Sequence record: SRR31156797_195
Reading direction: 5' to 3' (one strand)
DNA length: 33,730 bases
Below, one piece after another: positions 9,724-32,485 of the stretch. A model generated the notes under the pieces. It was not told the origin of the DNA. It worked only from the letters and a program-made list of their open reading frames with translations, and ran no database searches. Positions within the stretch are counted from its first letter, which is position 1. Each line of letters begins with the position of its first letter. The translations under genes were made by a program, and so were the position numbers.

Positions 9724-10494
9724 ATGGCCCAGGTCATTTCCGTTTCCAATCAAAAAGGAGGGGTTGGTAAAACAACCACCGCCGTTAATCTTTCCGCCGC
9801 CATTGCCGCCGGTGAAAAAACATGCCTCTTGGTTGATTGCGATCCTCAAGGGAATGCCACAACCGGTTTGGGGCTGGACATCGAGGGCCTTTCCCACGGG
9901 CTATATGATCTTTTGATGGGAACCGCTTCACTGGAAGATGCCATCACCGAAACCGAACTCCCCCACCTTCATCTTCTGGGTGCCACAAGAGAACTCATCG
10001 GCGCCGAAGTGGAAATGGTTTCCATGACCTCCAAAGAGTTTCTTCTGAGAAAAATCATATCACTACTTCGAAAACGTTATGATTATATCTTCCTCGATTG
10101 TCCGCCGTCTCTTGGCTTTCTCACCGTCAATGCGCTCACGGCGTCAGCATCCGTTCTGGTGCCCCTTCAATGCGAATATTATGCCCTGGAAGGACTATCA
10201 AAACTACTCACCACGGTGAAAGCCGTAAAGAAGCGACTCAACCCCGTACTCAGGCACGTCAATATTCTACTGACCATGTATGACAAGCGGAACAATCTCT
10301 CCCGTCAGGTGGAGGAGGAAGCCCGAGCGCTTTTTAATGAGCGGGTACTGAAAACGGTGATCCCGCGAAATGTCCGCCTGAGTGAGGCGCCCAGTTATGG
10401 AAAACCCATTATCCTTTATGACATACGCTCCCGGGGCGCGCAAAGTTATCTGTCGCTGGCGCGTGAAATGATTAAGAGAGAGAAGGCACCATGA
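9724..10494 (+). CDS. parA: Chromosome partitioning ATPase ParA/Soj
   Basis: NQKGGVGKTTT deviant Walker A, DCDPQGNAT, DCPPSLG, IPRNVRLSEAPSYG. Confidence 0.97.
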   Translation: MAQVISVSNQKGGVGKTTTAVNLSAAIAAGEKTCLLVDCDPQGNATTGLGLDIEGLSHGLYDLLMGTASLEDAITETELPHLHLLGATRELIGAEVEMVSMTSKEFLLRKIISLLRKRYDYIFLDCPPSLGFLTVNALTASASVLVPLQCEYYALEGLSKLLTTVKAVKKRLNPVLRHVNILLTMYDKRNNLSRQVEEEARALFNERVLKTVIPRNVRLSEAPSYGKPIILYDIRSRGAQSYLSLAREMIKREKAP

Positions 10495-11336
10495 CAAAAC
10501 GAAATGCTCTGGGAAAGGGGTTATCGGCCCTCATTCCCGATGGTCACGATTTGGATGAAAATGAAGAACAGTTTTTCCTCTGCCCTGTCGCGGCCATTGA
10601 ACCCAACCCGAACCAGCCTCGACAACGATTTCCGGCCCATGAACTGGATGAAATGGTTGTCTCCGTGCGTGAAAAGGGCATCCTCACCCCGCTGCTGGTG
10701 AACCAAACAGAAGCCGGCTACCAGCTCATTGCCGGCGAAAGGCGATGGCGGGCCGCCCAGATGGCAGGGCTTGAACGGGTTCCCGTCGTGGTTCGGGACG
10801 TGACGCCTTCGGAATCACTGGAACTGGCGCTCATTGAAAACATTCAGAGGAAAGACCTCAACCCCATTGAAGAGGCCATGGCCTACCAAAAATTAATGGA
10901 AAATACGGCATCCACCCAGGAAATGTTGTCCCGGCGTCTGGGTAAAGATCGCTCCACCATTGCCAACCTGTTGCGGTTGCTGAAACTACCCATCGCCTTT
11001 CAGCAGGACGTGATTGACGAACGGATCACCATGGGACACGCACGAATACTGGCCGGCATGGGAGAAAAAGACCAGCAAAAAATCTTGCGAGATGCCATTA
11101 TCAAAAAAGGGTTGTCCGTGCGGCAGGCTGAGGCCCTGGCCAGAAAACTGAAAAACCCGCCCAGACCCAAAAAGGTCCTATCCAAGGATGATCCCTATAT
11201 CCGGTCTCTATCGGATAATCTGAAGCGAAGCCTGGGGACAAAGGTTGAGATCAAAAAGGACGGCAAACAGGGCAGGATTCTCCTCTATTTCTATTCCGAC
11301 GATGAATTGGACCGATTGGTGGAATTCTTAACCTGA
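10491..11336 (+). CDS. parB: Chromosome partitioning protein ParB/Spo0J
   Basis: LGKGLSALI, NPNQPR, IAGERRWRAA, LIENIQRKDLNPIEEA, HTH GKDRSTIANLLRLL; ATGA overlap with parA. Confidence 0.97.
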   Translation: MTKRNALGKGLSALIPDGHDLDENEEQFFLCPVAAIEPNPNQPRQRFPAHELDEMVVSVREKGILTPLLVNQTEAGYQLIAGERRWRAAQMAGLERVPVVVRDVTPSESLELALIENIQRKDLNPIEEAMAYQKLMENTASTQEMLSRRLGKDRSTIANLLRLLKLPIAFQQDVIDERITMGHARILAGMGEKDQQKILRDAIIKKGLSVRQAEALARKLKNPPRPKKVLSKDDPYIRSLSDNLKRSLGTKVEIKKDGKQGRILLYFYSDDELDRLVEFLT

Positions 11337-16266: not shown

Positions 16267-17400
16267 ATGCCTTTAGCGACCATAGATGAAGTCCTTGAAG
16301 ACTTGAAACAAGGAAAAATGATCATTCTGGTGGATGATGAAGACCGGGAAAACGAAGGCGACCTGACCATGGCTGCAGAAAAAGCCACACCCGAAGCCAT
16401 CAACTTCATGGCCACCCACGGACGCGGCCTTATCTGCCTGCCCATGGCCCCTCACCTTCTTGAAAAGCTGAAACTTCCTCAGATGGTAACGGACAATCGC
16501 TCCCCTTTTGAAACCGCTTTTACTGTTTCCATTGAGGCGCGTACCGGTGTTACCACCGGCATATCAGCAGCCGACCGGGCCCGTACCATCACTGTTGCGG
16601 TAGCAGATGATGCCAAACCTGAGGACCTGGTTCAACCGGGTCACGTCTTTCCTTTGAGAGCGCGCCGAGGTGGTGTTCTTTTCAGGACCGGACAGACTGA
16701 AGGATCCGTCGATCTAGCACGCCTTGCCGGGCTAAAACCTGCGGGGGTTATCTGCGAAATCATGAAAGATGACGGGACCATGGCGCGTATGCCGGATCTA
16801 GAAATTTTTGCTAAAAATCATGATCTTAAAATTGCCAGTGTGGCCGACATTATTGAATATCGAATGCGAACGGAATCATTTGTTCATCTTGCAGCTGAAA
16901 CCCTTCTTCCCACACCATTCGGCGAATTTAGGGCCATGGCCTTTGTAAATGATATTGACGCCCACGAACATCTGGTTTTGGTCAAAGGGGATATCGATCC
17001 AGAAAAGGAAATTTTGGTTCGAGTTCACTCCCAGTGTACTCCCGGCGACATATTCAGCTCCCTCAAATGCGACTGTAGGGCCAAACTGGATAAGGCCATG
17101 GAACTGGTGCAGCAAGAAGAACAGGGTGTTATTATCTATATCCAGCAGGAAGGAAGAGGTTTAAGGCTGGCCCGGTACAAAATACTTGAGGACGACGGGC
17201 AAACCCTGACTGAGGCCCACAAGGAAGGGTGTCTGGAAGCGGATTTGAGAAATTACGGCGTGGGTGCCCAAATACTGGTGGCGTTGGGTGTAAAAAAAAT
17301 GCGTCTTTTGACCAATAACCCAAGAAAAATAAAGGGGCTGGAAGGTTATGATCTAAAAATGGTAGGCCGGGTTCCCATGGAAGCCGAAAAAACCCCGTAA
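16267..17400 (+). CDS. ribBA: 3,4-dihydroxy-2-butanone-4-phosphate synthase fused to a shortened GTP cyclohydrolase II-like domain
   Basis: [46 protein letters not shown]-terminal RVHSQC..GD...[16 protein letters not shown]. Confidence 0.92.
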
Positions 17401-17505: not shown

Positions 17506-17521
17506 TGTTTCACGTGAAACA
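17506..17521. promoter_or_regulatory. parS: parS centromere-like site
   Basis: Exact TGTTTCACGTGAAACA, intergenic, about 6 kb from parB and about 11 kb from dnaA; core of a 30-bp perfect palindrome at 17499-17528. Confidence 0.93.
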
Positions 17522-17641: not shown

Positions 17642-18805
17642 ATGATATTTGAATTCACCACGCCTTCCCGAATTATTTTTGGTTCCCGAGCCGTCAATCA
17701 GATCCCATCCATCGTGCAAAATTGGGGCGGCAGGGCCTTTGTGCTGGTGGGCAATACCCCTCAAAGGGCTGCCCCTCTCCTAAAACAGCTTCGGATCACC
17801 AACACCCAATTTTCCATTTTTGAAGTACCTGGGGAGCCCACCACCACACTTGTGCGCAACGCAGTTCGCATGGCCAGGGAAACCGATAGTGATTTCGTTA
17901 TCAGCCATGGCGGCGGCAGCGTTATTGATACGGGTAAAGCCGTCGCAGCCCTCCTGACAAACTCGGGAGACCTCTTCGATTATCTTGAAGTTATCGGCTA
18001 CGGCAAGGAAATCAGCCACCCTGCAGCAGCCCATCTGGCCATTCCCACAACGGCCGGGACCGGAACAGAAGTAACCCGTAATTCCGTCATTTTATCTCCT
18101 GACCACCATGTTAAAGTCAGCATGCGAAGCCGCTCCATGTTACCCACCGCAGCCATCATTGACCCTGAACTTACCCATTCCATGCCCCCCCATTTAACTG
18201 CCTATACCGGACTGGATGCGCTCACCCAACTAATTGAGGCTTTTGTCTCCAACGCATCGAATCCAATAACGGACGCACTCTGCCGTGAAGGTATCCAGCG
18301 TACAGCGCGATCCCTGTTGAGGGCTTATCAAGATGGTGATGATCGGGAAGCTCGAGAAAATATGGCTTTGGCAAGCCTGTTTGGAGGCCTTGTTCTCGCC
18401 AATGCCAAATTGGGCGCCGTACACGGCCTGGCCGCCCCTTTGGGAGGAATGTTTTTAGTACCCCACGGAGCTGTCTGCGGTTGTCTTCTTCCCCATGTGA
18501 TGCAGATCAATATCCAAGCCCTGCTTTCACGGGCACCAAACGCCTCGGCGCTTTCACGCTACCGCCAGGTGGCAGAAATTTTTACTCGGAACACTTCCAC
18601 AGATCCGATGGATGGCGTGGAATTCTTGAAAGATCTTTCCGGCAAGCTTCAAATCCCCAGCCTCCCTGAATTTGGCGTTCCTCCTGAATCCTTTTCTATG
18701 CTTATAGAAAAAGCACAATCAGCCAGCAGCACCAGGGGCAACCCCATAGAGCTTACAACTAACGAGTTCATATCAATTCTCAAATCTGCTTCAGCCAAAC
18801 CATGA
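17642..18805 (+). CDS. Iron-containing alcohol dehydrogenase
   Basis: GEP, GGGSVIDTGKA, IPTTAGTGTEVT, DPEL, DALTQLIE, GAVHGLA, PHG..C. Confidence 0.93.
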   Translation: MIFEFTTPSRIIFGSRAVNQIPSIVQNWGGRAFVLVGNTPQRAAPLLKQLRITNTQFSIFEVPGEPTTTLVRNAVRMARETDSDFVISHGGGSVIDTGKAVAALLTNSGDLFDYLEVIGYGKEISHPAAAHLAIPTTAGTGTEVTRNSVILSPDHHVKVSMRSRSMLPTAAIIDPELTHSMPPHLTAYTGLDALTQLIEAFVSNASNPITDALCREGIQRTARSLLRAYQDGDDREARENMALASLFGGLVLANAKLGAVHGLAAPLGGMFLVPHGAVCGCLLPHVMQINIQALLSRAPNASALSRYRQVAEIFTRNTSTDPMDGVEFLKDLSGKLQIPSLPEFGVPPESFSMLIEKAQSASSTRGNPIELTTNEFISILKSASAKP

Positions 18806-18837: not shown

Positions 18838-19779
18838 TCAATAATCATTTTCCGCCATACACGTGGAAATCATTCTATCCAACAGATTGCTTAGATTCCA
18901 TCCGTTACCCTTTGCGGCCAGCGGAACCAGGCTGGTTTCGGTCATACCTGGAATGGTGTTCGTTTCAAGCAGGTAGATCTCGTCATTATTTATAATCATG
19001 TCCGTTCTGCTCCAATCTCTACAACCTAGTGCACGGTGGGCATTTTCTGCCATTTCAAAGGCCTTATTTCGAAGTTGCGTTTCAATTTGTGCGGGGCAAA
19101 TTTCATTGGTCTCACCGGCGGTATATTTTGCGTCAAAGTCAAAAAATTGATGCGTATCCTTTGGCACAATTTCCACCAGAGGTAATGTCTGAAGATGATT
19201 TCGTCCTAATACCGCACATGTTATTTCCCGCCCGGACACATATTCCTCCAGTAAGACCTCCTTATCGAATTGGAAAGCCTTTTTAATACCCGCCTGTATA
19301 TCGTTATCATTCTTCATGATGGAAATACCAATGCTGGAACCTTCACTCACCGGTTTAATCACCACAGGCGTTCCCAGAATATCATTAATTTTGTCCACGG
19401 AAACGGTTTCCCCTTTTTTCATAATTATATCTTTGGGGACACGCAACCCAACACTGCGATATACATCCTTGGTCATCCGTTTATTCATGGTAATTGCGCT
19501 GGCTAAAACACCTGATCCCATAAACGGAATCCCGAACACCTCCAAAAGTCCTTGAATACGACCATCTTCTCCATATTTTCCATGCAAAAGGTTAAAGACC
19601 AAATCTAGCGAGTTTCTCTTCTGCCACAAGACATTCAGATCATCTTTCGGATCAAATGACACAATGTCATATTTTCTTTTATCCAGAGCACCCAGAACCG
19701 CTTTACCACTTTTAATGGAAACACTTCTTTCTTTGGACCACCCGCCCGAAAGAACGGCAATCCGTATCTTATTAGCCAA
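18838..19779 (-). CDS. ddl: D-alanine--D-alanine ligase
   Basis: GGWSKERSVS, LHGKYGEDG.IQG, KPVSEGSSIG, DFDAKY, ETNTIPGMT; TTG start with GGAGG SD. Confidence 0.95.
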   Translation of the reverse strand: MANKIRIAVLSGGWSKERSVSIKSGKAVLGALDKRKYDIVSFDPKDDLNVLWQKRNSLDLVFNLLHGKYGEDGRIQGLLEVFGIPFMGSGVLASAITMNKRMTKDVYRSVGLRVPKDIIMKKGETVSVDKINDILGTPVVIKPVSEGSSIGISIMKNDNDIQAGIKKAFQFDKEVLLEEYVSGREITCAVLGRNHLQTLPLVEIVPKDTHQFFDFDAKYTAGETNEICPAQIETQLRNKAFEMAENAHRALGCRDWSRTDMIINNDEIYLLETNTIPGMTETSLVPLAAKGNGWNLSNLLDRMISTCMAENDY

Positions 19780-22142: not shown

Positions 22143-24566
22143 TTATTCTTCTTCCATAATCTTGGCGACACCCACAACCTTTTCCCCTTCCCCAAGATTG
22201 ATCAGTTTTACCCCTTGTGTGTTTCTACCGATAACTGAAATATCCGCAACCCTTAATCGAATAATTTTACCGTGCCCCGTGATAATCATCAGTTCATCCT
22301 GATCGGTCACCTCATAAGCATAAACAACCGTTCCGTTTCTTTCACTTGTTTTGATGGTAATAACGCCTTTTCCGGCTCTTGATTGGGTCCGATATTCATC
22401 GGTTTTGGTTCTTTTACCAAACCCGTTTTCCGTAACCGTCAGAATCGTAGCCCCTTCACCGAGGGTCGCCATTCCGACCACTTCATTACCCGGCGCCATC
22501 TTAATGCCGATATTTCCAGAAGCAACTCTCCCCATACTTCTCAATTCAGATTCTTTGAATCGGATGGATTTTCCTTCTTTGGTGGTCAGAAAAATATCCT
22601 GTTCGCCACTGGAAATCCTTACGGCAATTAATTCATCATTCTCTTTAATCTTCAACCCGATAGTGCCAACGGACCTGGGATGACTGTATGCTTTAAGCTC
22701 CGTCTTTTTAACCAAACCCATTTTTGTGGCCATGACCACATATTTTCCTTCTTCGTAATCTCGAACAGGGAGTATGGTGGCCAACCGTTCTCCCTTCTTC
22801 AGATCCAGGAGATTCACAATGGCCTTTCCCCGGGAGGTTCTTCCACCTTCCGGAATTTCATGAACTTTTTTCCAGTACACCCGCCCCTTGTTACTGAAAA
22901 ATAGAAAAGAATCGTGGGAAGACGCCACAAAGAGATGCTCCACAAAATCCTCTTCTTTAGGTTTGGCACCGGTGAGACCCTTCCCTCCCCGTCTCTGAGC
23001 CCGATAGAGGCTTATGGGATTTCTTTTGATATACCCTTTGTGACTGATGGTCACCACCATGTCTTCTTCAGCGATAAGATCTTCCATATCGATCTCTTCG
23101 GCATCCTCAATAATCTCCGTCCGCCTTTCATCGCCGTAAGCGTCTTTAATCTGGGTGAGTTCTTCTTTGATAATATCTAAAACCATTTTAGGCGTAGCCA
23201 AAATTGCTTTATAATGGGCGATGTCTTTTAAGAGCGCTTCATATTCCGAATGAATTTTTTCTCTTTCCAGCCCAGTAAGCCGCTGCAGTCTCATGTCCAG
23301 GATTGCCTGTGCCTGTATATCCGAGAATTGGAACTCTGAAATCAGTCTGCCCTTGGCTTCTTTGGCATCAGCGGAAGATCGGATCAACTCAATGACTTCA
23401 TCCAGAAAATCAAGAGCTTTCTTAAGCCCTTCCAAAATATGGGCCCGCGCTTCCGCCTTCTTCAGCTCAAAGATTGTTCTCCTGACGATCACTTCACGGC
23501 GGTGCTTTATGAAATGATCGATCATTCCCTTAAGGGTCAGGATTTCCGGACGTCCATTAACAATGGCCAACAAAATAATGCCGAAGGAAACCTCCATTTG
23601 TGTGTATTTATAGAGCTGATTTAGAATGACCAGGGCATGAGCGTCCCGCTTTGTTTCAATAACGATGCGCATGCCGTCTCTGTCCGACTCATCGCGAATT
23701 TCGGATATCCCCTCTATTTTCTTTTCCCTCACTTGAGCCGCCATCTTTTCAAGCAGTTTTCCCTTGTTCACCTGGTAAGGAATTTCGGAGACAATAATCC
23801 TCTCTTTTTTGTGAGCGTATTTTTCCACAAACCCCCTGGCCCTGACCTTGATAATACCCCGTCCCGTACTGTAAGCATCAACAATTCCTTTTTTCCCGAT
23901 AATAAACCCTGAAGTCGGAAAATCCGGTCCCGGTATGACACGCATTAATTCCTCAATGTTAACATGGGGGTTGTCAACAACCTTTTCAATTCCATCACAG
24001 ATTTCCGAAAGATTGTGGGGCGGGATATTGGTTGCCATTCCAACAGCGATCCCTGAAGATCCATTGACCAGTAAATTCGGCACCTTTGTGGGAAGAACCA
24101 GGGGCTCGAGAAGAGTACCGTCATAAGTAGGTGCGAAATCAACCGTTTCTTTTTCAAGGTCATCCAGAAAATCCTGTGCCGTTCTCGTCATCCGCACTTC
24201 GGTGTATCGCATTGCAGCGGGGGGATCCCCGTCCACGGACCCGAAATTTCCCTGGCCATCCACAAGACAATATCTCAGGGAAAAATCCTGCGCCATCCGA
24301 ACAATGGTATCGTATACGGCGCTGTCCCCGTGGGGATGATATTTACCGATAACATCACCCACAACCCTTGCAGATTTCTTAAAAGGCCTGTTAAAAAAGT
24401 TCTTAAGGTCATTCATGGCGAACAGCACACGCCTGTGAACCGGTTTCAACCCGTCCCGAATGTCCGGCAGTGCGCGGCCCACGATAACGCTCATGGAATA
24501 TTCGAGATAAGATTTTTTCATCTCATCTTCAATGTTTACAAATTCAGGTTCTAAATCCTGCAGCAT
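22143..24566 (-). CDS. gyrA: DNA gyrase subunit A
   Basis: [28 protein letters not shown], GyrA-box QRRGGKG. Confidence 0.98.
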
Positions 24567-24688: not shown

Positions 24689-28193
<3,505 letters not shown>

Positions 28194-28423
28194 TGTTTCC
28201 TCCGTTGGTGATGTAGTTGTTATTCTTTTATGTCTTTAGAAATAACTCTAATAATAAAATGCTGTAGATTTGTTTAAAAATTGAGTAACCCTCTGGTTTT
28301 TCGTATATTATTTTCATAAACCATTTATAAAGAAATGATCTGCAACTTTCAGAAAAAAAACGGGTTGTCAATTTTTATACTTTTTGAACAAAGGTTGACA
28401 AAAATTTGGACAGATCTGAAATC
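28194..28423. other. Candidate replication origin (oriC-like dnaA-dnaN spacer)
   Basis: 230-bp AT-rich spacer; minus strand reads TTTTAAACA-AATCTACA-GC-ATTT-TAT-TAT-TAG, resembling a tandem DnaA box + GC + DnaA-trio unwinding module; the boxes are degenerate. Confidence 0.55.
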
Positions 28424-29746
28424 CTACCCAACCGAATCATTTGAAAGAAACCCCCTTAACTTATTTATATCATTAACAACAGATATTTTTGACTTAATAT
28501 TTTCTTCAATATTATTGATTGAGTAAATTATCGACGAATGATGCTTGTTCCCGAATGCTCTTCCAATTTCTTTTAAAGACAAATCCGTGTATTTTCTTGT
28601 CAGGAAAATGGCCACTTGTCTGGGATAAGAGATTTTCCGCTCTTTTTTTCGGCTCAAAAGATCGGATGGCGAAATCTTAAAATATTTCGCTGTGATTTTT
28701 TGAATATGCTCAGGACCAATCTGAACATGAAGTTTATTTTCAAGAATGGACTGCACAATGGAAATATCCATTTTGTTTCCGTAAATAGGTGCGTGGTCTT
28801 TGATTTTCTGAATTTGACGGGCAAGATTTTTCAGGTCATTGGTTGAGCTTGCCAGAAAGAACTGTGCGTCCTCTCGAAACTGAATACCCTGTTGTTTTGC
28901 TTTTTGGTGGACCACCTTCATTTTCGTTTCTTGATCAGGGACCTTTATTTCAGTAATCAAACCCCATTCAAGGCGGGAACGCAATTGGGGTAAAAGGTTT
29001 TTTATCTGGCTCGGAGGTGCGGAGGCGGCAACCACCAACTGGCGTTTTGATTCTAGAAACAGACTACACAGAGAAAGCAGTTCTTTTTGTATCTTATCCT
29101 GAGAGGCGATAGCCTGAATATCGTCGAGCAACAAAAAGCAAGGTGGCCTTTCTTCTCCCCAGAAAGTGTTAATTCTTTCAGGAGTCGTTTTTTCGAATTG
29201 GGAAATAATGTTTTCAGCTGACAGGTAAATGGCTTTTTTATCAGGGTCTTTTTTCATGGCCTCATTGCCGATTGCGTGCAATAGATGGGTTTTCCCCAGG
29301 CTCCATTTGCTAAAGATATAAAGAGGATTATACTTGTGGGACGGATTGTTTGCAACATCCAGTGCTGAGGAGCAGGCCAGCCCGTTGGAACGGGCTTTAA
29401 TGAAATCGGAAAAGGTACGGGACGGATCCAATCCAAGGGGAAAGGATGTTTTTGAACTTTTAGGGATACGTTTCTTTTTTTCTTTTGTTCTGCTTCGAAG
29501 GGTTCGGTAAGAAAATCGGATGGCCGGCCGGGTACCCGAAATCTCTTGCAACAGCAGTCGTATGGGCTCACTGTAATTTTCAGAAAGCCATGCTGCGACA
29601 AATTTGTTTGGAACCTCAATAACAACCAATTCCGGGCTGATCTCCTGTAGAGATGTTTGTGACAGCCAGGTTTTGAACTCGGATTTAGGAATGTCGTCCT
29701 TGATGTTCCGTTTTATTTGATCCCATATTTCATTTTTGGTTGTCAT
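28424..29746 (-). CDS. dnaA: Chromosomal replication initiator DnaA homologue (divergent)
   Basis: All four domains recognisable (TWL, VPNKF; NPLYI...LGKTHLL, LLLDDIQ, LRSRLEWGL; PRQVAIFL, SLKEIGRAFG); directly upstream of dnaN. Confidence 0.93.
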   Translation of the reverse strand: MTTKNEIWDQIKRNIKDDIPKSEFKTWLSQTSLQEISPELVVIEVPNKFVAAWLSENYSEPIRLLLQEISGTRPAIRFSYRTLRSRTKEKKKRIPKSSKTSFPLGLDPSRTFSDFIKARSNGLACSSALDVANNPSHKYNPLYIFSKWSLGKTHLLHAIGNEAMKKDPDKKAIYLSAENIISQFEKTTPERINTFWGEERPPCFLLLDDIQAIASQDKIQKELLSLCSLFLESKRQLVVAASAPPSQIKNLLPQLRSRLEWGLITEIKVPDQETKMKVVHQKAKQQGIQFREDAQFFLASSTNDLKNLARQIQKIKDHAPIYGNKMDISIVQSILENKLHVQIGPEHIQKITAKYFKISPSDLLSRKKERKISYPRQVAIFLTRKYTDLSLKEIGRAFGNKHHSSIIYSINNIEENIKSKISVVNDINKLRGFLSNDSVG

Positions 29747-29855
29747 GGAGAACAGTTGTAGGTTAGTAAAAAGGATTTTTTAAAAAACAGTGTATTTTAG
29801 ATATTTTTTGAAAAGATAGCAATTAAAATTTATCTTTCACCATGGGGAGGAAAAC

Positions 29856-30602
29856 ATGACGTATTCAATTGCTTTAGCTGGAAAAGGGGGTACCGGTAAA
29901 ACGACAACAGCGGGTATGCTTGTCAAATATCTGGTGGAGAAAGGCGAAACGCCCGTATTGGCCGTAGATGCCGATGCCAATGCGAATCTTAATGAGGTGT
30001 TGGGCTTGACGGCGGGGGAAACGCTAGGGGATGCCAGGGAAGACATGAAAACAGGTGTGTCGCCGGGCATGACAAAAGATATTTATATGGAAATGAAACT
30101 TCAGGAAGCGATCGTTGAGTCAAAGGGATTTGATCTGATTGTCATGGGACGTCCTGAAGGCTCCGGATGCTATTGTGCGGCCAATACGCTTTTGACACAA
30201 TATCTGGAAAAGTTGATGGATAACTACAGGTATCTTGTGGTGGACAATGAGGCGGGCATGGAACATATCAGCCGGCTCACCACCAACAACATCGACGTAC
30301 TCCTTGTGGTATCCGATGCCACAAGGAGAGGATTGCAGGCGGCCCATCGCATTGTGGAATTAACGGATGCCCTCAAATTGAATATCAGCCGAAAAGTTGT
30401 CATGGTTAACCGGGCAAAGCCTGGTCAATCGGAGGCTTTGGACGAGGCGCTCAACCAGTATGAAATGGATTTCATCGGTACCGTCCCCGAAGATCCAGAA
30501 GTCCAACTCTTTGACCTGGAAGGAAGGCCGACAGTGGAATTGCCGAGCGAGAATGAAGCAATGAAAGCCGCATACCGCATTTTTGACGATATAATTCCAT
30601 AA
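29856..30602 (+). CDS. cooC: CooC/AcsF-type CODH/ACS nickel-insertion ATPase
   Basis: GKGGTGKTT, VDADAN.NL, GSGCYC, DNEAGMEHISR; upstream of acsD-cooS. Confidence 0.92.
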   Translation: MTYSIALAGKGGTGKTTTAGMLVKYLVEKGETPVLAVDADANANLNEVLGLTAGETLGDAREDMKTGVSPGMTKDIYMEMKLQEAIVESKGFDLIVMGRPEGSGCYCAANTLLTQYLEKLMDNYRYLVVDNEAGMEHISRLTTNNIDVLLVVSDATRRGLQAAHRIVELTDALKLNISRKVVMVNRAKPGQSEALDEALNQYEMDFIGTVPEDPEVQLFDLEGRPTVELPSENEAMKAAYRIFDDIIP

Positions 30603-30943: not shown

Positions 30944-32485
30944 TTGGCCTTTGAGATTCCCGAACAACCCTATTCCGGAAAAATAGGGGAAACGACACTC
31001 GGCGTCGGTGACGGCGCCGTAAAACTGGGTGGAGGAGACTCATACCCGTTCCATCTCTTTGAAGGCAATATGCCCAATGCCCCCAAGGTAGCCATGGAAG
31101 TCTGGGATTATGACCCTTCAGAAGAATGGCCCAAGGCGGCGGTTGCACCGTTTAAGGATGTGATTGCTTCACCTGAGGCATGGGCAAAAAAATGTGTGGA
31201 CGAATACGGCGCCGATCTAATTGTGTTGCAGTTAAAAGGCACTGATCCGAACGGAATGGACCGCGCTGCTGATGAGACTGCGGAAATCGTCAAAACGGTT
31301 GTCGATGCGGTGGATGTACCTCTGGTTCTGTGGGGAACCGCCAACAACGCAAAGGATGAAGATGTGCTGAAAAAGATCTCGGAAACCTGCGAGGGCAAGA
31401 ATGTGGCGCTCGGACCGGTGGAAGAGGCAAATCACAAGGGTGTGGGTGCCAGCGCTCTCGGCTATGGCCAAGCCATTGTTTCCTCTTCTCCCATCGATGT
31501 GAACCTGGCCAAACAGCTCAATATTCTACTCAGTAATCTGGGCGTTAACAGCGACAAGATTATCATCGATCCCACCACCGGCGGTCTGGGATACGGTATG
31601 GAATATTCATACTCCGTCATGGAACGGATTATGATGGCGGCCTTGACCCAGGAAGACGATAAACTTCAGATCCCCATGATCTGCAATCTGGGGAATGAAA
31701 TCTGGAAATGCAAGGAAGCCAAAGAGGCCATTGAAGACGCCCCAACCCTGGGTGATCCTGAAAAGCGGGGGATTATGATGGAGTCCGTGGCGGCCGTCTG
31801 TTACCTGTTGGCCGGCGCATCCGTGGTTGTTCTTCGTCATCCGGAAAGTGTTCGGTTGACCAAATCATTTATCCAATTGCTCTCAAACGGCGGGACCGCT
31901 TCAAATGTGGCTGACGTATCCAAAGTTCTTGACCTTGAAAAGGCGGATCTTCTGGCTGTTTCTCCCGAACCCAACCTGGATTTTGGGGAGACGGAAGCTG
32001 TAAAGAAGCCGGCTGCCAAGGCGGCTCCCGCACCCAAAGCAGAAACCAAACCGGAAGCAAAGCCAGAAGTGAAGGAAGCACCCAAGGCGGCTCCCGCACC
32101 GAAGGCGGAAGCCAAACCCGAAGTGAAGGAAGAGCCAAAAGAGGATCCGGAAGCGAAGGCCAAGGCAGAAGCCAAAGCCAAAGCGGAAGCGGAAGCCAAG
32201 GCCAAAGCGGAGGCGGAAGCCAAAGCCAAGGCAGAGGCGGAAGCCAAAGCGGAAGCGGAAGCCAGGGCCGAGGCGGAAGCCAAAGCCAAAGCGGATGCGG
32301 AAGCTGCGGAAGTGGCCAAACGGGAGGCCGAGGAAGATGCATTGAGGGAAGCCCGTGCGGAAGAGAACCGAAAGCGCATGGAAGCCAGGGCGGGCGCTGG
32401 AAAGAAAAAGATTACCTTGACGGCTGCAAAAACAAAGACAACCAATATCGACAGGATTCTGAATAATCTCAAAAGAATGAGATAA
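30944..32485 (+). CDS. acsD: Corrinoid iron-sulfur protein small subunit (ACS delta) with long Ala/Glu/Lys/Pro-rich C-terminal extension
   Basis: SSPIDVNLAKQLN, IIDPTTGGLGYGMEYSYSVMERI..AAL.Q.D..LQ.P, LRHPES; TTG start with AGGAGG SD. Confidence 0.93.
   Translation: MAFEIPEQPYSGKIGETTLGVGDGAVKLGGGDSYPFHLFEGNMPNAPKVAMEVWDYDPSEEWPKAAVAPFKDVIASPEAWAKKCVDEYGADLIVLQLKGTDPNGMDRAADETAEIVKTVVDAVDVPLVLWGTANNAKDEDVLKKISETCEGKNVALGPVEEANHKGVGASALGYGQAIVSSSPIDVNLAKQLNILLSNLGVNSDKIIIDPTTGGLGYGMEYSYSVMERIMMAALTQEDDKLQIPMICNLGNEIWKCKEAKEAIEDAPTLGDPEKRGIMMESVAAVCYLLAGASVVVLRHPESVRLTKSFIQLLSNGGTASNVADVSKVLDLEKADLLAVSPEPNLDFGETEAVKKPAAKAAPAPKAETKPEAKPEVKEAPKAAPAPKAEAKPEVKEEPKEDPEAKAKAEAKAKAEAEAKAKAEAEAKAKAEAEAKAEAEARAEAEAKAKADAEAAEVAKREAEEDALREARAEENRKRMEARAGAGKKKITLTAAKTKTTNIDRILNNLKRMR
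32016..32305 (+). repeat. Coding repeats in the acsD tail
   Basis: Exact 19-nt direct repeat CCAAGGCGGCTCCCGCACC at 32016 and 32082 (KAAPAPK), then degenerate 18-24-nt units encoding (AE)AEAKAK from about 32150 to 32305. Confidence 0.9.

Follow-up and report, generated by a model that had tools for sequence, protein, structure and literature searches.

A gene for the replication initiator DnaA was analyzed in a 33,730-nucleotide stretch of DNA from sequence record SRR31156797_195 (the window, along whose full length all coordinates are counted). The gene lies at 28424..29746 on the minus strand as an open reading frame (ORF) for a protein of 440 amino acids (P0001) and is followed on the same strand by dnaN for the beta clamp (27078..28193), gyrB (24689..27076), and gyrA (22143..24566), in that order. 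The dnaN and gyrB ORFs were assigned from orthologues in related genomes, with translation for gyrB, and gyrA from the Pfam domains DNA_topoisoIV and DNA_gyraseA_C. In the DnaA protein itself, Pfam detected DnaA_N at residues 5–68 (E value of 6e-16), Bac_DnaA at 106–265 (4e-40), and Bac_DnaA_C at 345–413 (5e-26). The description in an earlier note of a full-length, intact DnaA at a dnaA-dnaN locus was thus confirmed by the ORF, the domain architecture, and the adjoining dnaN. The same arrangement recurred in related genomes, with dnaN following the gene at each of the 15 loci whose downstream sequence was long enough (from the window and 13 genomes of relatives). The protein nevertheless passed the DnaA equivalog model TIGR00362 only narrowly (365.3 bits for a cut-off of 343.9), whereas canonical DnaAs of the phylum scored 475–591 bits, and some of its orthologues fell below the cut-off (257–335 bits in five genomes). 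We refer to DnaAs of the kind found in the window as A-type and to a second paralogue present in related genomes (P0122) as B-type, both names being coined in this analysis. The window protein scored 664.5 bits on an A-type hidden Markov model (HMM) versus 316.9 bits on a B-type HMM.

Residues are numbered as in Escherichia coli DnaA on the basis of a MAFFT alignment with the K-12 protein (L074), to which the window protein is 31% identical. A second alignment, obtained with phmmer and Bacillus subtilis DnaA 8btg (E value of 9e-67), agreed with the first, and the window coordinates of every motif, all on the minus strand, were verified by translation. Every substitution listed in the earlier note was found in both alignments. 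In the Walker A motif (29288..29311), GGTGLGKT is replaced by SKWSLGKT (G172S and G175S), with G177, K178, and T179 being kept, so that the general P-loop pattern is nearly matched and the DnaA-specific GxxGxGKT is not. The Walker B motif (LLLDDIQ, 29114..29134) retains both D235 and D236 and conforms to hhhhDD. Box VI, the helix adjacent to the initiator-specific motif (ISM), reads QKELLSLCS instead of QEEFFHTFN (29063..29089), and the sensor I strand (VVAASAPP, 29012..29035) contains AASA in place of TSDR (T267A, S268A, D269S, and R270A). Box VII (QLRSRLEWGL, 28958..28987) shows R281Q and keeps the arginine finger R285, which corresponds to R258 of the window protein, and the sensor II helix (28817..28837) is changed from NVRELEG to DLKNLAR, including R334K. 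Domain IV, with its helix-turn-helix (HTH; Bac_DnaA_C, 28508..28714) and basic loop RKKERKISYPRQ (28616–28651), carries R399K, a signature (GNKHHSSIIYS, 28520–28552) in which GGRDHTT has become GNKHHSS (R432K, D433H, T435S, and T436S), and H439Y, with R407 and H434 unchanged. Domain I (DnaA_N, 29543..29734) retains the equivalents of W6 and F46. In E. coli DnaA, D269 confers unusually tight nucleotide affinity and R281 stability of the oligomer. Regulatory hydrolysis of ATP there requires R334, without which initiation can still proceed in vitro; the arginine finger, R285, contacts the ATP of the neighboring subunit, and F46 of domain I contacts the helicase.

As a reference we took the 30 best TIGR00362 matches (559–591 bits) in a sample of 151 genomes of the phylum, in which the scores were bimodal; all 30 showed fully canonical motifs, and dnaN followed the gene in 29, the 30th being located at a contig start. 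D235, D236, D269, R281, R285, and R334 were each present in all 30 proteins, G172 in 26 (the other four, otherwise canonical, having Ser or Ala), and D433 in 29. K399, K432, S435, and Y439 were found in 13, 21, 26, and 10 of these proteins, respectively. Among the domain IV residues compared, of which T436 was untallied in this set, only D433H therefore stands out, with H433 in none of the 30. Of the domain IV changes that the earlier note took as signs of degeneracy, R399K, R432K, and T435S are thus ordinary for canonical DnaAs in this phylum.

A search of 5.8 billion proteins yielded a graded series of homologues with 43–88% identity to the window protein. Residues were tallied in 117 of 121 aligned sequences, those of at least 400 amino acids with the window protein included; four shorter sequences were dropped. 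In Walker A, S172 was present in 111 and S175 in 108 of the 117 sequences, and K178 and T179 in all; in Walker B, D235 was invariant and position 236 was D in 108 and N in nine. Position 269 was S, T, or N (the usual sensor I residues of AAA+ proteins) in 85 sequences and D in two, and box VII contained Q281 in 97 and R285 in 116. Position 334, which is R in all 30 canonical and all 69 B-type DnaAs, was K in 105 A-type sequences, N in eight, R in one, and another residue in three. R407 and H434 were each conserved in 116 sequences, W6 in 112, and F46 in 114, and position 433 was H in 81 and D in 35. The recurrence of the same altered states in 117 full-length homologues is not a matter of chance. 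Scoring of A-type-specific replacements of residues that canonical DnaAs otherwise conserve, performed with 31 canonical, 38 A-type, and 69 B-type rows, revealed four clusters: K243, F251, H252, and T253 in box VI and the helix next to the ISM (the last three of them changed in the whole A clade), S268 and K273 in the sensor I strand, S331, R334, E337, and G338 in the sensor II helix, and A152 with A153. In these alignments, D269, R281, and the sensor II residue R334 are thus replaced throughout the A clade, with the residues expected to coordinate ATP and Mg (K178, T179, D235, and D236), the arginine finger, R407 and H434 of the HTH, and F46 being retained. The term "catalytically degenerate" that had been applied to the protein is therefore an overstatement: the catalytic core is kept, and the changes affect secondary or regulatory positions (G172S, G175S, D269S, R281Q, R334K, and D433H).

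Selection was measured as the ratio of nonsynonymous to synonymous substitution rates (dN/dS; Nei-Gojobori) for the window and seven orthologous loci (28 pairs, 27 of them with dS < 2, and dS values up to ~1.6). The median for the A-type gene was 0.147 (range of 0.10–0.22), compared with 0.072 for B-type, 0.064 for dnaN, and 0.053 for gyrB in the loci of the same relatives. The A-type gene is under clear purifying selection that is relaxed about twofold relative to its neighbors, and the simple decay for which the earlier note had allowed, with dN/dS near 1, is at odds with these values. An alignment of 21 A-type sequences spanning down to 33% identity still contained 35 invariant columns. In one relative (G003), the A-type gene is split into two frames (L019/L009); given that the dnaN frame there is also short (251 amino acids), assembly indels are a likelier cause than gene decay. 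Another relative (G212) has two contigs (L001 and L002), each with an A-type dnaA-dnaN locus encoding proteins 89% and 88% identical to that of the window, which suggests a mixture of strains in the bin. Metatranscriptome contigs from seawater (run X14) that are 85–90% identical cover dnaN and the whole A-type ORF, giving a weak hint of expression; they come from the only RNA library with related sequence and provide neither strand nor level, their depth falls in the dnaA-dnaN spacer, and DNA carry-over is possible. The dnaA and dnaN genes of the window (27078–29746) have a guanine-plus-cytosine (GC) content of 41%, compared with 47.8% for the whole window, and the GC content of the A-type gene versus the B-type gene is 35% versus 49% in the relative G001 and 26.5% versus 40% in L092.

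Nine loci related to that of the window belong to metagenome-assembled genomes (MAGs) labelled Desulfatiglandales, Desulfobacterales, or Deltaproteobacteria bacterium, with G001 being a complete chromosome of 8.16 Mb. A PF00308 search of the genomes of five relatives detected two full-length DnaA frames in four of them and, in G003, a full-length B-type frame together with the split A-type gene; the remaining matches were short, repeated IstB-like frames. Three further genomes (G212–G214) also carry both copies, so that all eight genomes with close A-type orthologues (G001–G005 and G212–G214) have a second full-length DnaA. No B-type gene was detected within the window by the B-type HMM. In 69 B-type proteins, position 172 was S in 34 and A in 33, and Walker B showed E in 59 and D in 10 at position 235 and E in 42, D in 11, G in seven, N in six, R in two, and K in one at position 236. 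The B-type consensus (L030:9609-10955 in G001, L075–L094, and L125–L164) is [SA]xxGxGK[ST] for Walker A and hhh[ED][EDNGRK] for Walker B. None of the 69 has D269 and just two have R281, whereas G175 (69/69), R285 (68/69), R334 (69/69), and R399 (68/69) are retained; domain IV has N, S, or D at position 433 and a one-residue deletion at G430. The window protein is not of the B-type, having DD in Walker B, K334, and a dnaN-linked gene in addition to its lower score on the B-type profile. In none of 54 B-type loci did dnaN follow the gene. Only ddl, divergent and upstream (14 of the 54 loci), and parA (5 of 54) recur beside B-type genes; the window has ddl at 18838–19779, 9 kb from the A-type gene. 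The two-DnaA arrangement suggested in the earlier note was thus recovered, with the difference that the paralogue, with Walker B EE, D269 absent, and R281 mostly absent, is not the canonical one that had been expected.

The distribution of the two types was examined in a sample of 61 genomes of the order of G001, 59 of which gave a TIGR00362 match. An A-type profile (A2) built from 21 A-type sequences separated 28 genomes with matches of 429–678 bits from all other full-length matches, which scored at most 350 bits. A full-length non-A second copy was present in 22 of the 28 A-bearing genomes; its B-type identity was checked by sequence in G001, G016, G041, G035, G062, G047, G029, G048, and G030, as it was in six single-copy genomes, and by score in the rest. 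In G057, two N-terminal fragments lie where contigs end, and in G054 a B-like fragment of the C-terminal part is located 8 kb away from the A-type gene. G039, G013, G007, and G033, MAGs with no completeness given, showed no B-type match at E ≤ 1e-5. One of these, G033, contains five frames of ~330 amino acids and one of 79 that match only the C-terminal part of the B-type profile (an HTH like that of DnaA domain IV) and that possibly represent proteins of mobile elements carrying a domain similar to DnaA_C. No full-length A-type match was obtained in the remaining 31 genomes with a DnaA match; among them, G063 and G022 have a weak second copy that is unclassified, and G065 has a fragment only. 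G050 has an N-terminal fragment that is possibly A-type. The two genes lie 10–35 kb apart on one contig in seven genomes (G062, G029, G048, G035, G047, G038, and G063, the A-like copy of the last being the unclassified one) and 940 kb apart in G001 (B-type at 4.83 Mb and A-type at 5.77 Mb).

In the phylum sample, the A-type profile recognized A-type genes in two members of the order, G001 and G007, and in no other genome; scores on the A-type HMM were 338–465 bits for canonical DnaAs and at most 350 for B-types. Of the ~60 low-scoring TIGR00362 matches in this sample, 40 were retrieved, of which 38 were B-type and two were canonical-like second copies, and dnaN was absent from the retrieved flanks of these 40 loci. 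The two canonical-motif copies (L128 in G204 and L151 in G102) accompany a higher-scoring DnaA, do not adjoin dnaN, and fall on a long branch sister to the B clade. The B-type is the only DnaA-length Bac_DnaA frame in five single-contig genomes of 1.7–2.5 Mb (G049, G103, G169, G174, and G133). Where dnaN was located in single-contig genomes, it lay 47 kb to >700 kb from the B-type gene; it was not found in G049 with the window DnaN as the query.

A tree was inferred with IQ-TREE (LG+C20+F+G4 with posterior mean site frequencies, and with support from the Shimodaira-Hasegawa-like approximate likelihood ratio test, SH-aLRT, only) from 77 rows selected from 140 sequences: every third canonical row, every second low-scoring row of the phylum, all rows of the order, and thinned database matches. 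A-type proteins formed a single clade (SH-aLRT of 100) on a stem of 1.1 changes per site, and B-type proteins formed a separate clade (support of 99). Both clades arise from unresolved canonical Desulfobacterota DnaAs, a placement for which the long branches call for caution. The groupings (G016,(G041,G062)) and (G035,(G047,G029)) were obtained in both clades, and these matching topologies point to long co-inheritance. The small B-only genomes form a B subclade of their own, from which the A-type was therefore either lost or never kept. Given that the A-type and canonical genes are dnaN-linked and the B-type is not, synteny together with profile scores indicates that the A-type is the positional descendant of the canonical dnaN-linked dnaA.

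With regard to the surroundings of the gene, parA (9724–10494, plus strand; Pfam AAA_31/CbiA) and parB (10491–11336, plus strand; Pfam ParB_N, HTH_ParB, and ParB_C) lie elsewhere in the window. A perfect 16-bp palindrome, TGTTTCACGTGAAACA, at 17506..17521 (plus strand) is the window's one match to what we take to be the parS consensus, and none of 100 shuffles gave any match at ≤2 mismatches. It is situated in a 241-bp gap between ribBA (16267–17400) and an Fe-alcohol dehydrogenase gene (17642–18805), with parAB 6 kb and dnaA 11 kb away. The GC skew of the window switches sign at 28–30 kb, where gene orientation flips as well, so that the two are confounded. On the basis of parAB, the perfect parS, and the sign change in GC skew, the dnaA region is origin-proximal. 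The 230-bp dnaA-dnaN spacer (28194..28423) has a GC content of 28%; seven aligned orthologous spacers (24–31% GC) share conserved blocks, and the spacer contains, as consensus matches only, a hairpin resembling a terminator downstream of dnaA and a promoter-like site that precedes dnaN. On the other side, a 109-bp intergenic region (29747..29855) separates dnaA from a divergent cooC-like gene, with a promoter-like site before dnaA at 29822–29794 on the minus strand that is again a consensus match only; eight such sites were seen for 4.3 ± 1.9 expected. Further along, a CdhD-like protein (acetyl-CoA synthase delta subunit; 30944–32485, plus strand) has a C-terminal low-complexity tail of ~150 amino acids that is rich in A, E, K, and P and contains KAEAEAKA-type repeats, and the opposite-strand ORFs 31837–32472 and 31869–32342 are mirror artefacts of this repeat.

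The canonical DnaA box TTATCCACA matched the window 10 times at ≤1 mismatch for 8.1 expected, with none of the matches in the dnaA flanks or spacer, and box density in sliding windows at 1–2 mismatches tracked only AT-richness at A-type and B-type loci alike. De novo counting of repeated 7-mers in the flanks of 12 A-type loci returned only A/T-rich words, and direct and inverted repeats in 28100–30000 were limited to short two-copy matches. The GC skew of G001 was sampled in 42 stretches of 20 kb, which are sparse, noisy, and confounded by gene orientation; it stays negative across the B-type locus and is positive from a point between 5.3 and 5.8 Mb. In the B-only genome G049, 20 sampled stretches showed several sign changes, a pattern compatible with, and not demonstrating, an origin near the B-type gene.

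We consider it probable that the A-type protein is a functional, strongly derived, ATP-binding auxiliary DnaA that acts as a partner of the B-type in a two-DnaA system. Its gene, which persists in an order of Desulfobacterota labelled Desulfatiglandales, has an intact reading frame, is maintained by purifying selection, and has been inherited together with the B-type. To judge from its residues, the protein looks like an ATP-binding, oligomerizing DnaA without the hydrolysis switch rather than a dead ATPase: it would still bind ATP and DNA and oligomerize, and it would have lost the canonical ATP-hydrolysis switch. In the subclade of the window, it may also read an altered box, given the D433H replacement (H in 81/117 A-type sequences versus 0/30 canonical). 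Because the B-type is the sole DnaA in related genomes, it should be able to initiate alone, and the A-type would for that reason most likely have an auxiliary part, as co-initiator or as regulator, in the origin region with its parS, parAB, and dnaN-gyrBA, acting either alone or in mixed filaments with the B-type. A more specific version, for which our confidence is distinctly lower, is that the B-type, with its modified Walker B and no link to dnaN, took over initiation in many Desulfobacterota and that in the Desulfatiglandales-type order the A-type was repurposed as a switch-less ATP-binding partner, in A/B filaments or at its own sites, that might control initiation or the expression of dnaN-gyrBA.

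Several observations weigh against an auxiliary role as partner of the B-type. The presence of a second DnaA in the source genome of the window is inferred from relatives, and four of the 28 A-bearing MAGs are those in which no B-type was detected. The A-type evolves about twice as fast as the B-type, dnaN, and gyrB. D236N in 9 of the 117 homologues and the lack of a basic residue at position 334 in 11 show that constraint on the active site is not absolute. The effects ascribed to changes at D269, R281, and R334 are carried over by analogy from E. coli. Neither a binding motif nor a cluster of DnaA boxes was found near the A-type gene in the searches described, and oriC was not located by them. 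The skew of G001 excludes a switch at the B-type locus and fits an origin near the A-type gene better than one near the B-type gene.

The last of these points is among those that favor the strongest rival explanation, namely that the A-type is the principal initiator, at an oriC by dnaN, wherever it is present, and that the B-type has another role there, for example in regulation or as a transcription factor. Also in keeping with it are the canonical dnaA-dnaN-gyrB order and the proximity of parS and parAB, the intact Walker B with the other core ATP-site residues and the arginine finger, and the absence of the second acidic residue of Walker B in 16 of the 69 B-types, and, if the four MAGs with no detectable B-type are complete, the A-type could initiate alone. 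Against this stand the five single-contig genomes in which the B-type is the sole DnaA, the 31 other genomes of the order with no full-length A-type match, the stronger purifying selection on the B-type (0.072 versus 0.147), the loss of the A-type from a whole B-only subclade, and the lack of a DnaA-box cluster flanking the A-type gene. We regard this explanation as rather unlikely. The related suggestion in the earlier note of an unusual sole initiator is improbable for the clade, with a possible exception in the four MAGs. Separate origins for the two proteins are likewise unlikely, given that the genes lie as close as 10–35 kb in seven genomes and that the sampled skew of G001 showed no second switch at the B-type locus.

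Less probable still is the pseudo-ATPase proposed in the earlier note, a protein that neither binds nor hydrolyzes ATP and serves only as a scaffold or DNA-binding regulator. The loss of both extra P-loop glycines (S172 in 111/117 and S175 in 108/117), of D269 and R334 (D in two and R in one sequence), and mostly of R281 (Q in 97/117), together with a remodeled sensor II helix in which R334 is K and E337 and G338 are replaced, is what such a protein might show. Near-complete conservation of K178, T179, D235 (117/117 each), D236 (108/117), and R285 (116/117), on the other hand, would be unexpected for an unused nucleotide site; Ser or Ala at 172 also occurs in 4 of 30 otherwise canonical DnaAs, most A-type proteins have a sensor I residue usual for AAA+ proteins at position 269 (85/117), and Lys at 334 preserves the positive charge. 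That the A-type is a decaying, so far uninterrupted relic of the ancestral dnaA, as its twofold higher dN/dS, its marginal or sub-threshold TIGR00362 scores in several genomes (257–335 bits in five), and the two frames of G003 might suggest, is close to refuted by dN/dS values of 0.10–0.22 in 27 pairs with dS up to ~1.6, by full-length A-type ORFs in 28 genomes of the order, by the 35 invariant columns, and by the truncated dnaN of G003, which points to assembly indels.

We compared the A-type with known systems. It resembles canonical DnaA of E. coli and B. subtilis in its four-domain architecture, Lys and Thr of Walker A, DD of Walker B, R285, R407 and H434 of the HTH, and the position of its gene directly upstream of dnaN-gyrB, and it differs in G172S, G175S, D269S, R281Q, R334K, D433H, the remodeled box VI and sensor II helix, the barely sufficient equivalog score, and its coexistence with a second DnaA in relatives. 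With the B-type it shares full-length architecture, Ser or Ala at position 172, the loss of D269 and R281, the retention of R285, the same genomes, and a congruent tree; the B-type, in contrast, keeps R334, G175, and R399, has E-E or E with N, G, R, or K in Walker B, is never dnaN-linked, and is spread across the phylum sample, alone in many genomes. Hda consists of an AAA+ domain only, with a clamp-binding motif, and acts on the initiator through its arginine finger. As a second DnaA-family AAA+ protein with an arginine finger, the A-type might be functionally analogous to Hda or HdaA, but the window DnaA has domains I and IV and scored 115.6 bits on TIGR03420, for which the cut-off is 194.8, and no clamp-binding motif was recognized in it by eye. 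Archaeal Orc1/Cdc6 paralogues provide several initiators per genome that have diverged in nucleotide-handling and DNA-reading residues, usually with separate origins, from which the A-type and B-type differ in their proximity in seven genomes and in the lack of a second switch in the sampled skew at the B-type locus of G001.

Both kinds are named "chromosomal replication initiator protein DnaA" in databases, with one A-type homologue listed as "ATP-binding protein, partial". Two complete dnaA genes occur occasionally in one genome, for example in Desulfovibrionia and Chlamydiales (bioRxiv 10.1101/2025.08.05.668638), as stated there in one sentence that comes with no motif analysis, phylogeny, or function and that concerns another class of the phylum. 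Among the papers listed by full-text searches on dnaA paralogy, none concerned a split into A-type and B-type. DnaA paralogy as such is already known, and what appears to be new is the specialization of the two copies at the level of motifs.

The finding bears on how bacterial initiation is modeled. Current models of replication control center on the ATP/ADP switch of DnaA, with R334 and D269, and the protein is regarded as one master initiator that hardly varies. Here a whole order keeps two co-inherited DnaAs, and the part of the canonical ATP machinery that is missing differs between them. The copy linked to dnaN has diverged further and can probably be dispensed with, and many relatives have no DnaA other than the unlinked paralogue with its noncanonical Walker B. 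The pair is a natural experiment on which DnaA residues serve initiation and which serve regulation, and it makes the adjacency of dnaA to dnaN an unsafe guide, in these genomes, to the initiator or to oriC. If the A-type has indeed been repurposed alongside a B-type initiator, the two would constitute a bacterial two-initiator orisome that fills the regulatory niche of proteobacterial Hda and the regulatory inactivation of DnaA (RIDA).

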